DNA of 64,000 nt from a virus, in IMG/VR virus record IMGVR_UViG_3300028394_002801, positions 46,396-110,395 of that record; one strand, given 5' to 3'. Every line of letters starts with the position of its first letter. Positions within the stretch are counted from its first letter, which is position 1. The translations under genes were made by a program, and so were the position numbers. The notes under the pieces are model-generated. The model ran no database searches, was not told where the DNA came from, and saw only the letters and a program-made list of their open reading frames with translations. Positions 1 through 63,056 of the stretch are shown here, piece after piece.

Positions 1-2938
1 ACTGTTGGCGGACTATCTGGTCATTTTGTTCAAAAAGTAGCCTCACAGCGACCGCGGAGATTAATTTACGTGCTTGCAATAACAACCTACGAACGTTAAT
101 TCTATTTAATGCTGATTCTCTAACTTGCAAAGTTTTATTTCCCCAAATTACAGTATTCACATCAGAGAATGTTGCAATTGGATTTATTCTTCCTTGATAT
201 AAAGTATCTCTATCATCTTGTGTTAATTTTAATCTTGCTTTAACTGAATTAACCAATCCTCTATTATAACCTGCTGATGCAAACCAAGGGAATGCTACGT
301 TATCAGTTAATGCCAAATTTCTACAAACTTCTGCTGTTGGTGGAATATATACTTGGGTATTATTCACTTGGTCTCTAACCAAAATCCAAGGATAATATGT
401 TGCAGTATAATTTGAATCAATATTTGTTTCCTCCAAAGAAACAATTGATTCTTGGGGATAAATAACATTATTCACATCAGTTGTTAATAAATTTGCATCA
501 GGTGTTGTAACAATATAAATTGAATCTGCTCTATCGCTTTCAATCATATCAATTGCATTTTCAACCAAGTTGCTATTATTAATATAATCAATACCTGGTG
601 TAACAAAAATATTTATATTTGTTGATTCTGGATTTTGATATGTTAAAATTCCCTTTAAATATGCATAATAATCTGTTGTTGCAAATTCAATTGAACCATC
701 ACCATCTGTAATTTGTTTAAATGTTCCTTGTCCTGTTGCCGCTACATATTTGCCAGATACAGATAATGCACCTCTCATATAATCAATACCTCCAATTTGG
801 TATGAATCACCATTTGTTCTTCTTTCAGAATAAACATCCCATCCATCAAAACCACCCTCAAATAATAAGGTGAATTTTCTTGAATATAAGTAATAATATG
901 GATTTGAATTTGTTTCTGGTTCTGAATTAAAACTTCCACTACCAACCTCAAATGCTGTTTGACCACTTGTTGTATAACTATTTGCTATTGTAACAATTGT
1001 TGCACCTGAATCCATATGGAAACCTTTTGTCACCACATTCCATTCTGAACCATCAGAAATAATGCTTGCTGGATTTTGTTTACCCTTATAGTTTAATAAA
1101 GAATTATCATATCCATAATTTGTTGAAAATCCAAGATATGTTCTTTTTACATTATCAGCGGCTACAGCATTTGATGCTGCAAATGGTTCATTATTAACAA
1201 CCTCATTATTATAATAATATTTTGTCTTATATAATAAATTTGGTGTTAATGCACTACCATACTTTCTATGGGGATAACCCATAAATCCACAAGGAATTGC
1301 ATCAAATGGAAATTCATCACCCATTTCAAGCATAATGTATTTTGAAACCAAATTATATTTGCCATCACTTGTTCCAATCTTCTTTCCAACAAAACTATTT
1401 TGTGTTTCATCTAATGTGCAATTTGTATATTTTTCCAACACAACTGGCGCTGAATCTGAATCATAATAACTTCTAACCAATACATCAAATGTTCTATTCT
1501 TAAATGACATATTAACAATTGAAGCCTTAACTTCAGTATTTGCTGAATTTCCATCAGATATTGAAATGAATTTGAATAAGTTATAAACTTTATTTCCTCT
1601 CAATTCAGAAACAACAAATGGTGTTTTTGGTGATTGATATTTTTCAAGATACCATCCAATTGATGTACCACTACCACTTCTTGCTGATGGCAAATAAGTT
1701 AAAGTTTGTTTTAATCCTCTAATATAACCAAGTCTATATGCTTGATTTAATAATGTTGGATAATGTTCTTCAACAAATATTGGGACATCATTCCTATCTT
1801 TCCCAAAATTATCAACACCCAATACATTTGCAATATAATTTGAATTGGTATTTTTTAATGATACATTAAATGTGTAATTAGTGTTTGATGTTGTTTTTCC
1901 ACTTAAAACAAAATTACCAAATGGTGTCTCACTTATAGTTGTACTATTAGCTGTATCAATAGTTAATGCACTTAAACTATAAAGTTGACCATGATCGGTT
2001 GATGAATAATTTGTGATACCTCTTGACCTAATTGTTGCAACAACCATATCATTATAATCTGTATATGCTGTTCCAGTAAATGTATAAGTGTTACCAGTTA
2101 CTGTTCCAGTGAATGCGCCACTTGATACATTAAAACTAGATGTGTTGTAATAAAATGAATAACCTGTATAATCATTCCCAGAATTAGCAAATGTTGCATA
2201 ATACCAAAAATCATTTTCATTTGCTGGCTTACCATTACTACCCAAAGATACAGTTGTTCCAAAATAATTATATTCAGTTAATCCTGACTTTGTTGATCCT
2301 GTGATTGAATTATACACAGATACTGGTAATGAACCATAAGTTGATGTTTGACCAGTTAATGAAGTTGATAAAGCCACATCATTTGCAAATGTCTTTAAAT
2401 CATCATAGAATGTTGATGTTGAACCATTGCTTGCTGTATAAGTATCACCAGAAAATAATGCTGCACTTATACCATTTGGATATGTAGCACTTGTTATTAC
2501 AAATGTTCCAGTTGTTCCAGTTGTTCCAGTAAATACTATTGAGATAGATGGACCAACACCAGTTCCACCGGTTAAACCAACAGTTGAATGATTAACATTT
2601 GCAATTGTTGTTATTGACCAAGATGGACCAGCATCATAACCAGATAGTCCCAATACCCTTGTAACATACATTTGATTTGATTGTTGCAAATATGACTTGG
2701 CAATATATGCAGATTCATATTTTGGTATCTGTGTGTTTATATATTTTTCAGGTGATGTTCCACCAAAATAAGTTTGAAATTCATCATAACTTGTAATGAA
2801 TATAGGCTCAAATGCGGGGCCTTTGATCGTCTCACCGACCATTCCCAGTGTGGTTACACCAATACTCTGTGAAACAAAACTTAAATCTGTTTCAGAGGTA
2901 TATACACCAGGAGATACGAATACTTTTTCATTTGCCAT
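1..2938 (-). CDS. Contractile tail sheath protein (3' end runs off the window; missing from the ORF track)
   Basis: Hand translation from ATG at 2938: MANEKVFVSPGVYTSETDLSFV...GETIKGPAFEP; near position 1 the same frame reads WFASAGYNRG...RDTLYQGRINPIATF...IWGNKTLQVRESALNRINVRRLL. These are classic sheath N- and C-terminal motifs. Confidence 0.93.
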   Translation of the reverse strand, partial: MANEKVFVSPGVYTSETDLSFVSQSIGVTTLGMVGETIKGPAFEPIFITSYDEFQTYFGGTSPEKYINTQIPKYESAYIAKSYLQQSNQMYVTRVLGLSGYDAGPSWSITTIANVNHSTVGLTGGTGVGPSISIVFTGTTGTTGTFVITSATYPNGISAALFSGDTYTASNGSTSTFYDDLKTFANDVALSTSLTGQTSTYGSLPVSVYNSITGSTKSGLTEYNYFGTTVSLGSNGKPANENDFWYYATFANSGNDYTGYSFYYNTSSFNVSSGAFTGTVTGNTYTFTGTAYTDYNDMVVATIRSRGITNYSSTDHGQLYSLSALTIDTANSTTISETPFGNFVLSGKTTSNTNYTFNVSLKNTNSNYIANVLGVDNFGKDRNDVPIFVEEHYPTLLNQAYRLGYIRGLKQTLTYLPSARSGSGTSIGWYLEKYQSPKTPFVVSELRGNKVYNLFKFISISDGNSANTEVKASIVNMSFKNRTFDVLVRSYYDSDSAPVVLEKYTNCTLDETQNSFVGKKIGTSDGKYNLVSKYIMLEMGDEFPFDAIPCGFMGYPHRKYGSALTPNLLYKTKYYYNNEVVNNEPFAASNAVAADNVKRTYLGFSTNYGYDNSLLNYKGKQNPASIISDGSEWNVVTKGFHMDSGATIVTIANSYTTSGQTAFEVGSGSFNSEPETNSNPYYYLYSRKFTLLFEGGFDGWDVYSERRTNGDSYQIGGIDYMRGALSVSGKYVAATGQGTFKQITDGDGSIEFATTDYYAYLKGILTYQNPESTNINIFVTPGIDYINNSNLVENAIDMIESDRADSIYIVTTPDANLLTTDVNNVIYPQESIVSLEETNIDSNYTATYYPWILVRDQVNNTQVYIPPTAEVCRNLALTDNVAFPWFASAGYNRGLVNSVKARLKLTQDDRDTLYQGRINPIATFSDVNTVIWGNKTLQVRESALNRINVRRLLLQARKLISAVAVRLLFEQNDQIVRQQ

Positions 2939-2958
2939 TATTATTTTTTATTTATTCA

Positions 2959-2968
2959 TATAAATATC
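2959..2968 (-). promoter_or_regulatory. Putative late promoter motif GATATTTATA upstream of the sheath gene
   Basis: The same motif recurs upstream of many structural genes in the window. Confidence 0.55.
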
Positions 2969-2998
2969 TAAAAAATAATCAAAAACCATTATTGAGTT

Positions 2999-61532: not shown

Positions 61533-61540
61533 TATTTATA
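61531..61540 (+). promoter_or_regulatory. Putative late promoter motif GATATTTATA
   Basis: Identical to the motif upstream of the sheath. Confidence 0.55.
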
Positions 61541-61553
61541 AGATAAAATAATA

Positions 61554-63056
61554 ATGTCAATTCATTTATCTTATTTCAATAGAAACAACACATTAATATC
61601 AAATTCCAAAATAAATACAGGCAGAAATCCTGTTGTGGAATTAACCTACGGGGCAACAGATTACCTAATCCCTGCATATGGTCCAACAAGATTAATCTTT
61701 AATTTAAATCTTCAACCATTAATTGATAAAGTTAATGATGCCATCATATTTAGTGGTTCATTAAGCAGTGTCACTCATACATTAGTGATGAGGAATACAG
61801 CATCATTTGATGAATCATTATTGAATGGTAAAATGCCTTCACAAAAGAGAAGAGCATCATCATTTGATTTGAATTTATTTAGAATTCCATTAAGCCAAGG
61901 AACAACTGGATATGTGCAATATTGGGATGAAGGTGTTGGATATGACTATACAAATTATTCAAAAAACTTGAATTCAGGGTCTGGGGCAAAATACCCTCTT
62001 GTTATAAATGATGACAATTCATTTGCGACAACTCCATCAAATTGGTTTAGTGGGAAGACCATAAGTGGTTGGACTGAGCCTGGAATATATAATAATAAAA
62101 ATGAGGGCAAATTTAATTATTCTGAATTAACTATTATTGATACCCAACATTTTGAATTTGGTAATGAAGATATTTCATTTGATATGACAAATGAAATAAA
62201 CGCCATTTTAAGCGGCTCTACTGCATCTTATGCTGGTTGGGGTATTGCATATCCACCATCTTATGAAAATGCGGTAGGCTTAACAGAAAGTTATTCTGTT
62301 GGCTTCTTTTCAAGGCACACCCAGACATTTTATGAACCATATTTAATAACAACTTATGATGATTTGATTAAGGATGATAGAAATAATTTTGTTAAGAATA
62401 GGGTAAATAAATTATATCTTTATGTGACAGATGAAGATTCATATTCAAATTTGGATAATAATCCAATTGTTAATATATTTGACAATTATGGGGATGTTCT
62501 TACTGGTTGCACAAACTTGCCAACAATATTAATTACCAAGGGAGTTTATGAGGTATCTATTCCAAATGTATTTAGTGGGCGTACAACACCTATGGTATTT
62601 ACTGATGTTTGGAGTGGGATGACCTTAAATGGGATTACATTACCCAATGTTGAAAATGAATTTGTATTATATGATGTAAATAATAGAATTAAAACTGGAA
62701 CAAAGACAACAGAAAGTGAAACATATAATTTTGATTTCTATAACATTCTGCAAGGAGAAAAAATACTCAATACTGATGTTAGAAAGATTGGGGTTATAAT
62801 TAAAAAAGCATATAGCACAAGTGAATTATTAACAAACATTAAAGGATTTTATCGTGTTTATGTTAAGGAGGGGGAAACCCAAGTCCAAGTTCAAGATTGG
62901 ACAGAATTAAACAGAACACCAAATGAATATTATTTTAATTTTGATACCAGAGATAAAATACCAAATAAATACTTTGTTGATTTAAAGGTTCAAATTGCTG
63001 GGGAGATTACCACATACAAAAAACAATTAACATTCTTTATTGTAAATAAAAAATAA
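61554..63056 (+). CDS. Putative virion structural protein
   Basis: NTGRNPVVEL...WDEGVGYDY...FFSRHTQTFYEPYL; preceded by the late motif. Confidence 0.6.
   Translation: MSIHLSYFNRNNTLISNSKINTGRNPVVELTYGATDYLIPAYGPTRLIFNLNLQPLIDKVNDAIIFSGSLSSVTHTLVMRNTASFDESLLNGKMPSQKRRASSFDLNLFRIPLSQGTTGYVQYWDEGVGYDYTNYSKNLNSGSGAKYPLVINDDNSFATTPSNWFSGKTISGWTEPGIYNNKNEGKFNYSELTIIDTQHFEFGNEDISFDMTNEINAILSGSTASYAGWGIAYPPSYENAVGLTESYSVGFFSRHTQTFYEPYLITTYDDLIKDDRNNFVKNRVNKLYLYVTDEDSYSNLDNNPIVNIFDNYGDVLTGCTNLPTILITKGVYEVSIPNVFSGRTTPMVFTDVWSGMTLNGITLPNVENEFVLYDVNNRIKTGTKTTESETYNFDFYNILQGEKILNTDVRKIGVIIKKAYSTSELLTNIKGFYRVYVKEGETQVQVQDWTELNRTPNEYYFNFDTRDKIPNKYFVDLKVQIAGEITTYKKQLTFFIVNKK

Follow-up and report, generated by a model that had tools for sequence, protein, structure and literature searches.

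The 64,000-nucleotide stretch analyzed here (the window; positions 46,396 to 110,395 of IMG/VR virus record IMGVR_UViG_3300028394_002801) encodes several proteins in which the tetrapeptide [ST]-G-x-T is strongly over-represented. This tetrapeptide, together with a weaker [ST]-A-x-T form, is a real, lineage-specific short linear motif, and its enrichment pertains to outer tail, fibre and adhesin-like proteins. It runs through a very large radiation of jumbo phages related to T4 and sampled in lakes, rumen and gut. Judged from the sequences, the chances are about even that a phage-encoded O-glycosylation of proteins in the cytoplasm uses [ST]-G-x-T as its acceptor or recognition site and thereby decorates the tail. 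A viral contig of 110,395 bp (G000 in what follows), with a G+C content of about 30%, ends on the right with the 64 kb of the window; CheckV put the completeness of this contig at only 36%. Among its relatives, those of 270-326 kb have a completeness of 90-100% and a gene for a T4-type capsid protein, and one of them has terminal repeats. Therefore, the contig is a piece of a jumbo phage that is related to T4 and has a genome of about 300 kb.

An earlier note on this DNA had counted the pattern [ST]-[GA]-x-T by hand in five window proteins:

2-2938, minus strand: tail sheath (Pfam Phage_sheath_1); the gene continues 205 bases past the window start and the full protein has 1047 amino acids (aa)
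2999-3829, minus strand: FISUMP-domain lectin-like protein of 276 aa (PF09603, E-value 4.7e-23)
34141-37359, minus strand: collagen-like (GTS/GTT)n fibre with a C1q-like head (Pfam Collagen, E-value 5.5e-66, and C1q)
37362-39773, minus strand: 803-aa fibre-type protein with a conserved 600-aa N-terminal part and a swappable C-terminal module
61554-63056, plus strand: 500-aa protein, no family assigned, with 6 motifs versus 0.8 expected

The counts of 12 (803-aa fibre), 6 (500-aa protein), 5 (FISUMP protein), 10 (non-repeat parts of the collagen-like fibre) and at least 10 (sheath) were all reproduced, the sheath having 15. The five proteins thus hold 48 sites versus 9.7 expected, and the remaining 61 open reading frames (ORFs) of the window hold 8 versus 12.1. 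T4-type sheaths in the PDB align only to residues 1-100 and 728-1047 of the sheath, and the 627 residues between them are a lineage-specific insertion. All 15 sheath sites fall within this insertion (aa 101-727; 2.7 expected) and the conserved core has none (0.8 expected); sheath orthologs (n = 65) retain 4 to 13 sites. The 803-aa fibre, with 1.5 sites expected, has its 12 within aa 1-600 (1.0 expected) and none in aa 601-803. The expected numbers were 1.5 for the FISUMP protein (P ~0.02) and 2.7 for the non-repeat parts of the collagen-like fibre, and the orthologs of the 500-aa protein in complete relatives have 9 sites versus 0.7 expected (G004) and 8 versus 0.9 (G001). Over the whole G000 genome, [ST]-G-x-T occurs 84 times with 24 expected, and large proteins encoded in the left arm of the contig are also enriched (727 aa, with 19 sites versus ~4; 994 aa; 348 aa; 1625 aa).

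Such numbers could be an artefact of statistics or composition in repeat-containing proteins rich in Ser, Thr and Gly. Of the raw counts, the 29 in the collagen-like fibre indeed come mostly from its (GTS/GTT)n repeat, which yields SGTT, and are not enriched under local shuffles; a few other sites derive from GTT micro-repeats in the sheath and from the SprB-repeat consensus. As a general explanation the artefact is hardly tenable, however. The composition-preserving shuffles that the earlier note had proposed were run for each protein, and enrichment persisted when whole proteins, 30-aa blocks or 12-aa blocks were shuffled, with the collagen-like fibre taken as a whole as the exception. It also survived repeat masking and six permuted controls, and was seen again in 509 non-redundant relatives and in 150 fibre representatives. 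Three unrelated tandem-repeat systems (collagen-like GTS/GTT, a TPTxTx stalk and a leucine-rich-repeat (LRR)-like ITSLPEGLKV) were masked before an unbiased scan of 48,000 three-residue patterns in six geometries, and SG.T (45 versus 11.9 expected) and TG.T (39 versus 12.5) led the non-repeat patterns. Position 1 accepts S (3.8-fold) or T (3.1-fold) and nothing else. Position 2 takes G (3.4-fold) and, more weakly, A (1.9-fold). Any residue occurs at position 3 except P, which was never seen, and position 4 takes T (3.4-fold) and not S (0.83-fold), V or I. The six permuted or reversed patterns gave 0.86- to 1.3-fold and the pairwise sub-patterns 1.07- to 1.3-fold.

A third position that varies freely between fixed ones had been taken earlier as the mark of a recognition site and not of a structural repeat. 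Apart from the avoidance of P at position 3 and the weaker A at position 2, this was borne out: three positions are fixed, the flanks are bare (at most 0.23 bit at each flanking position among 605 sites from relatives), the carriers are unrelated, a sister clade lacks the motif, and sites are gained at new places. BLAST comparisons among the 12 motif-rich proteins found no mutual similarity, which rules out a shared paralogous domain; the SprB-repeat consensus fits just 5 of the 84 sites. An origin as a DNA-level word is ruled out by the diversity of codons at the fixed positions. The motif is also distinct, as had been stated, from the Bacteroidota sequon D-[ST]-[AILVMT], which shows no enrichment in the motif-rich proteins (33 versus 41 expected, 0.8-fold). 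Non-virion phage proteins have 3 sites versus 5.8 expected in G000 and 16 versus 35 in 320 orthologs, a depletion that one control pattern equals, and a recount gave one motif in PolB and none in most enzymes, as claimed. The assertion that the enrichment is found only in exposed virion proteins stood for the outer tail, fibre and adhesin-like proteins, but not for the virion at large: the 1567-aa, 602-aa, baseplate wedge and tape-measure-sized giant virion proteins showed no enrichment, and that of the capsid protein is not clear (see below).

How the sites behave between relatives was analyzed in three protein families. Few sites are invariant in place (119 and 152 in the fibre; 346, 644 and 658 in the sheath), some of them kept down to 46% identity; S and T swap at position 1, position 3 is free and Thr is fixed at position 4. 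When the fibre was compared with orthologs of less than 65% identity, about 5 sites were common to both and about 7 were private to each, with a chance total of 1.7. Among 50 fibre orthologs the motif occurs in 51 alignment columns, only 2 of which are occupied in at least 90% of the sequences and 35 in less than 25%, and the permuted controls were at chance. The 150 fibre representatives, which share less than 50% mutual identity, have 1075 sites versus 124 expected (mean 8.7-fold). So many private sites at a steady density indicate that the tetrapeptide is gained recurrently at new positions and that the motif itself is selected, beyond mere inheritance.

The trait is confined to certain lineages. 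Enrichment was 3.5-fold in G000, 2.2-fold in G001, 2.0-fold in G004 and 2.3-fold in G025, with 5 to 8 proteins in each at P<1e-3. The values were 1.03-fold in G012, 1.24-fold in T4, 1.36-fold in Mel-JY01 and 1.24-fold in the Xanthomonas phage XacN1, none of which has an individually significant protein, and the last three proteomes match their permuted controls. G012 is a relative represented by a 245-kb contig, 69% complete, with 40 sites versus 39 expected over its proteome. A 260-kb Bacteroidota genome sample gave 0.88-fold, so the motif is not a property of the host phylum. Four giant bacterial SprB-repeat proteins from a Bacteroidota metagenome-assembled genome reached 2.0-fold, but their permuted controls reached 2.0- to 2.3-fold; the phage SprB-repeat protein is at ~8-fold. 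Within the fibre family a subgroup of homologs is nearly motif-free, and in a tree of metagenome loci the motif-poor members fall into a single, well-supported clade that lies within the motif-rich diversity. Members of this clade (L405, L406, L408-L411, L416, L434, L437 and L452) apparently come mostly from host-associated samples. Several motif-poor clades are visible in the tree of the fibre protein; two motif-poor queries of the fibre family had no relatives in IMG/VR.

At homologous sites the motif-poor homologs have [DN]-G-x-x (DGNN, NGNN, NGYY, DGFT and similar) or T-[EKND]-x-x. By this comparison the fold would need a turn, at times with Gly, but neither Ser/Thr at position 1 nor Thr at position 4. 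No other argument is as strong as this substitution against a purely structural reading, by which S/T-G-x-T is simply this clade's way of making tight beta-turns or strand ends in beta-sandwiches rich in Ser, Thr and Gly, a structural "dialect" that remains unmodified. The structural models bear on this reading too. In the AlphaFold model of the 727-aa Ig-repeat protein (predicted local distance difference test, pLDDT, 79), 15 of the 19 sites straddle strand/turn boundaries. Nine of the sites run from strand to turn, 6 from turn to strand, 2 lie in loops and 2 within strands, against a background of 22%, 20%, 27% and 31% for the four classes (p = 0.0012 for boundary enrichment), and hydrophobic residues alternate upstream of the motif at -5, -3 and -1. 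The model of the N-terminus of the 803-aa fibre has a mean pLDDT of 49, with most sites in unconfident stretches, and is unusable for exposure. Given the varied strand/turn placement and the alternating hydrophobic residues, in beta-sandwich domains the motif marks the tips of hairpins and the ends of strands, in varying register and with no single conformation. The earlier note had expected the sites in surface loops; in this model 2 of the 19 are in loops and most are at strand/turn boundaries, so that Gly makes a real structural contribution.

Boundary placement and hydrophobic alternation are what an unmodified structural habit would produce. The same can be said of the sites that stay fixed down to 46% identity, of the motif-poor homologs that hold Gly at some of the same turns, and of the higher overall content of S, T and G in motif-rich proteins. 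We nevertheless consider this explanation unlikely. The same fold in the sister clade has [DN]-G or lacks Gly, and the expectation of a generic beta-turn, that the motif should appear wherever the fold does, failed in the sister clade, T4, Mel-JY01, XacN1, bacterial SprB and the Bacteroidota sample, which have no specific enrichment. Position 4 takes T and not S, V or I while the register varies (9/6/2/2), and sites are gained at new positions far beyond chance. Finally, the motif disappears jointly with one particular glycosyltransferase, which would be unexpected for a structural habit.

The window has about ten glycosyltransferase-domain genes as well as sugar-nucleotide genes. The genes that include and surround the glycosyltransferase in question are:

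41795-42370, plus strand: 191-aa protein directly upstream of GT406, syntenic in G001, G004 and G025, not found in any of the four motif-negative genomes
42469-43689, plus strand: GT406, a virus-only, 406-aa protein predicted to be a GT-B-type glycosyltransferase (phrog_7162 "glycosyltransferase", E-value 1.3e-41)
43697-44398, plus strand: 233-aa 3'-5' exonuclease-like protein directly downstream of GT406 (phrog_25228)
45412-53180, plus strand: variable glycosylation island (Pfam and PHROG matches)

Phylogenetic profiling was carried out by comparing genomes with the motif (G001, G004 and G025) to genomes without it (G012, T4, Mel-JY01 and XacN1). The glycosylation genes of the window that follow the motif in all three other motif-rich genomes are GT406, both of its flanking genes and the GT2_5 domain encoded at 45412-47046. 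GT406 shares 93%, 72% and 52% identity with its counterparts in G004, G001 and G025, where the island is syntenic, and is absent from the four motif-negative genomes; the 233-aa exonuclease-like protein (94%, 68% and 45% identity, respectively) is missing from them as well. GT406 matches Pfam Glycos_transf_1 weakly and under the cutoff (E-value 7.8e-4), and its nearest protein-atlas clusters are all viral, of the glycosyltransferase group-1 type (Glyco_trans_1_4, Glycos_transf_1, Glyco_trans_1_2). A sequence comparison of GT406 with the PDB gave nothing significant (best E-value 0.52). The gene was found in 17 of 22 records, including all ten motif-rich fragments that lack GT60 (G014-G023), and not in G012 or G013. 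In metagenome loci, which were scored over a neighbourhood of +-10 kb, GT406 was present in 24 of the 39 motif-rich and in none of the 11 motif-poor loci. The motif-poor G012 keeps four GT2-type genes; therefore, the link is specific to GT406 and does not extend to glycosyltransferases in general.

Several observations weigh against glycosylation of the motif by way of GT406. The profiling leaves 24 families with an identical presence/absence pattern, mostly uncharacterised. GT406 was not within +-10 kb in 15 of the 39 motif-rich loci, and the Fisher p of 2.7e-4 for its association with the motif ignores kinship. With the motif-poor loci in a single clade, the correlation comes down essentially to one joint loss plus three distant outgroups. 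In a relative of 193 kb, 87% complete, the GT406 homolog (G026:C1:50677-51886) contains at least 12 stop codons (TAA, TAG and TGA), owing either to decay of the gene or to faulty assembly; even so, the fibre-type locus next to it (L375) remains motif-rich, with 7 sites versus 1.4 expected. The T4-type major capsid protein of complete relatives has 4 sites versus 1.3 and 2 versus 1.0, which is no clear enrichment. The phage's own cytoplasmic enzymes are at 0.45-fold, but one control pattern is at 0.31-fold, so that a signal of avoidance is not separable. The Gly of the motif lies at turns, where Gly is structurally favoured, and some motif-poor homologs retain it there.

Part of this evidence would also suit a trans-acting reader that is not a glycosyltransferase, or a different modification, such as another co-distributed enzyme, an assembly chaperone or a binder array built from LRR repeats. 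Clade specificity, turnover and position specificity leave the identity of the reader unspecified, many co-distributed families are uncharacterised, an array of LRR paralogs is present in the window, and the G026 locus is motif-rich next to its broken GT406. We regard such a reader as rather improbable, since Ser/Thr hydroxyls combined with a strict Thr are a classic O-glycosylation acceptor pattern. In addition, GT406 is by far the best conserved glycosylation gene and leads a syntenic island in all motif-rich complete genomes, and a kinase, acyltransferase or similar enzyme is not among the annotated co-distributed genes.

GT60-type enzymes (PF11397) would be the obvious candidates for reading [ST]-G-x-T. 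Their block and a Thr-rich protein encoded in the window are:

25630-33996, minus strand: GT60 block, directly downstream of the fibre genes, with two PF11397 paralogs (25630-26886 and 32725-33996)
5386-9168, minus strand: 1260-aa protein with a TPTxTx mucin-like stalk and a LamG/ConA-like tip (PF13385, E-value 4.4e-19)

The two PF11397 matches are strong (E-values 1.6e-64 and 6.9e-47). Both paralogs start straight in the conserved N-terminal segment, and no hydrophobic leader was obvious by eye in the first 70 residues. The block also encodes a 789-aa methyltransferase-like/HtrL_YibB/GT2 protein, a DUF7796 protein and the products of three unassigned genes. These paralogs are neighbours of the fibre genes, a fibre homolog lies upstream of GT60 in 32 of 35 GT60 loci, and GT60 is present in 4 of the 5 most divergent fibre contigs of the clade. 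The family includes Thr-specific polypeptide GlcNAc transferases (PMC3769586). That these enzymes read [ST]-G-x-T is nonetheless very improbable, given a double dissociation. XacN1 has a GT60 at 43% identity while its motif count (78 versus 62 expected) behaves like its controls, and PF11397 is absent from the motif-rich G025 (318 kb, 96% complete), from twelve further motif-rich records (G014-G024 and G026) and from all 46 metagenome loci scored for GT60 out of 80 fetched.

The GT60 block probably serves Thr-rich repeats, the Thr-Pro stalk and the collagen-like Gly-Thr-Thr, and not [ST]-G-x-T. Mucin-like acceptors of this kind are present in the window as the stalk of ~670 aa and the (GTS/GTT)n fibre. 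The 1260-aa protein consists of an N-terminal domain of ~340 aa, the stalk (137 TPT) and a C-terminal lectin-like domain; its non-repeat part has 2 motifs, and its ortholog group 12 versus 5.3 expected (2.3-fold). A second TPT protein, of 180 aa with 17 TPT, is encoded at G000 8660-9202, and both are likely substrates of mucin-type (GT60) glycosylation. The GT60 gene and that for the 789-aa HtrL_YibB/GT2 protein (26933-29302, minus strand) travel together. Homologs with 43% and 38% identity lie within ~7 kb of each other in XacN1 (AP018399, 216551-223508), where genes for a carbamoyltransferase, a GT9 enzyme and a 3313-aa protein adjoin them. Such an arrangement suggests that unrelated jumbo-phage lineages share a portable module around GT60.

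O-glycosylation of [ST]-G-x-T by phage enzymes can be extended to a widespread system with a GT406 reader, a hypervariable island, a tail and fibre coat that varies between lineages, and loss of the whole as a unit, a larger proposal whose chances we place slightly below even. We infer that the motif is read by an enzyme, that the modification is a glycan and that Thr4 is the modified residue. The motif would be written onto strand ends and turns of the sheath insertion, the fibres, the Ig-repeat protein and the lectin-like proteins. GT406 would read it or initiate the glycan, possibly assisted by the GT2_5 domain, and the tail would be decorated before or during assembly. The variable island behind GT406 would supply elongating glycosyltransferases and donor sugars, and the GT60 paralogs would handle the Thr-Pro stalk and the collagen-like repeats in those sub-clades that have GT60. 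In the motif-poor sister clade the sugar coat would have been lost as a unit.

The island encodes a GT2_5+GT4 fusion, a GT25, a GT11, a hexapeptide acyltransferase, a GT10-like protein, a DegT fragment, a GDP-mannose 4,6-dehydratase and a fusion of HAD and sugar-1-P nucleotidyltransferase, and its gene content varies among G000, G001, G004 and G025. By direct comparison the GT10-like gene has matches in G001 and G025 and none in G004, where a screen centred on G001 gave a weak match (27%). The DegT/DnrJ-type aminotransferase ORF (50233-50835, plus strand) encodes 200 aa, compared with the ~370 aa usual for the family, and may be truncated or split; otherwise, together with the GDP-mannose 4,6-dehydratase and the hexapeptide acyltransferase, it would suggest a GDP-perosamine-type pathway.

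Two further groups of paralogs were found in the window:

3857-5373, minus strand: three tandem paralogs of 167-168 aa, adjoining the FISUMP gene
13125-17115, minus strand, and 63056-63999, plus strand: adjacent LRR-like paralogs with an I-x-SLPEGLKV-x-G-x-L repeat

Two of the three 167-168-aa paralogs open with a conserved ...(Y/F)-TG(S/D)T-TGA... segment that includes the motif. The LRR-like array, which gave the strongest tripeptide signals of the unbiased scan, could be a binder repertoire. In the 803-aa fibre (37362-39773, minus strand), aa 270-360 are Cys-rich with C-x-C-type clusters (CxCGCxCxC in orthologs), a composition that suggests disulfide-rich or metal-binding insertions beside several motif sites. 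When the 727-aa protein was searched for bacterial homologs, the best 120 matches were all orthologs from the phage clade.

The family is very abundant in metagenomes, with at least 596 sheath loci in IMG/VR. The 803-aa fibre has more than 2400 homologs with differing C-termini, and grouping at 50% identity gave 655 clusters. Besides lakes, contigs of 325-400 kb from human gut and rumen metagenomes carry fibre-type relatives (loci L405-L484), and motif-rich gut and rumen lineages with GT406 exist (e.g., L413/L414/L420 and L466/L467). Close relatives were not found among GenBank phages, either by DNA or with the fibre protein; the closest cultured sheath is that of the Microcystis phage Mel-JY01. 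As a clue to the host, the GDP-mannose dehydratase was uninformative, with at most 53% identity to many phyla. Large freshwater phages predicted to infect Flavobacteriia were the subject of a 2025 paper, which described four core glycosyltransferase families and has no motif analysis. Identity with the published "moraphage" lineage was considered and is not established: the lysyl-tRNA ligase that is near-core there is absent from four complete or near-complete relatives here. The sheath of an uncultured 484-kb phage (LR756508.1, 19551-22025; locus L340) has 5 [ST]-[GA]-x-T versus 1.1 expected, in 42-kb surroundings that are flat overall, and may represent another lineage with a weak form of the trait.

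If glycosylation of the tetrapeptide is confirmed, phage glycosylation sites would become predictable from sequence in thousands of uncultured jumbo phages, those of gut and rumen included, and GT406 and the motif proteins would form a concrete enzyme-substrate pair. In that case the variable island would diversify the virion surface, which might affect how the phage binds its receptor or adheres to mucus or particles and how well it withstands proteases or defence systems. Even without a glycan, a tetrapeptide that selection favours in unrelated virion proteins, and that a sister clade has lost as a whole, is a clear signature of a trans-acting factor.

Literature searches found no published phage sequon, and none spread over many tail proteins. 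Experimentally, phage-encoded virion glycosylation is established only in mycobacteriophages. There, phage-encoded glycosyltransferases modify the virion, and the capsid and tail-tube subunits bear the glycans at their C-termini (Freeman et al. 2023, as summarised in PMC12619734). Both systems have glycosyltransferases of their own, and the phage described here would likewise decorate its own structural proteins in the cytoplasm. However, the mycobacteriophage glycans are proven and, as described there, occupy subunit C-termini, whereas here a candidate tetrapeptide lies on turns, the capsid is not clearly enriched, and the enzymes are different. The Trypanosoma cruzi pp-alpha-GlcNAcT, of the GT60 family, modifies Thr (PMC3769586). 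As regards the GT60 enzymes of T. cruzi and Dictyostelium, the window has PF11397 genes beside Thr-rich virion proteins, and a preference for Thr fits the strict position 4; but their known acceptors are Thr-rich runs and not a beta-turn tetrapeptide, and the distribution of GT60 departs from that of the motif.

General O-glycosylation in Bacteroidota, the presumed host phylum, resembles the system proposed here in having a three-position O-glycosylation sequon, although D-[ST]-[AILVMT] is another motif and is not enriched in these proteins. The Bacteroidota system works in the periplasm, but phage assembly takes place in the cytoplasm. Bacteria also have cytoplasmic GT-B protein O-glycosyltransferases, for example GtfA/GtfB, which act on serine-rich-repeat adhesins, and the autotransporter heptosyltransferases, which target a short inter-strand loop. 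If GT406 is a GT-B-type enzyme that reads the motif, it would resemble them in acting on Ser/Thr in inter-strand turns of beta-rich, surface-destined proteins, before assembly here as before export there. GT406 differs from them in its lack of significant similarity to the PDB, its below-cutoff match to Glycos_transf_1 and its all-viral nearest clusters. In the BclA protein of Bacillus, Thr is glycosylated on collagen-like Gly-x-Thr repeats; [ST]-G-x-T resembles one turn of such a repeat and the phage has a (GTS/GTT)n fibre, but the motif sites are mainly in globular beta-sandwich domains and not in triple helices. As an analogy only, the N-glycan sequons of viral envelope proteins likewise keep their number while individual sites come and go. 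There, the chemistry and the enzymes are different, and the machinery here would come from the virus instead of the host.

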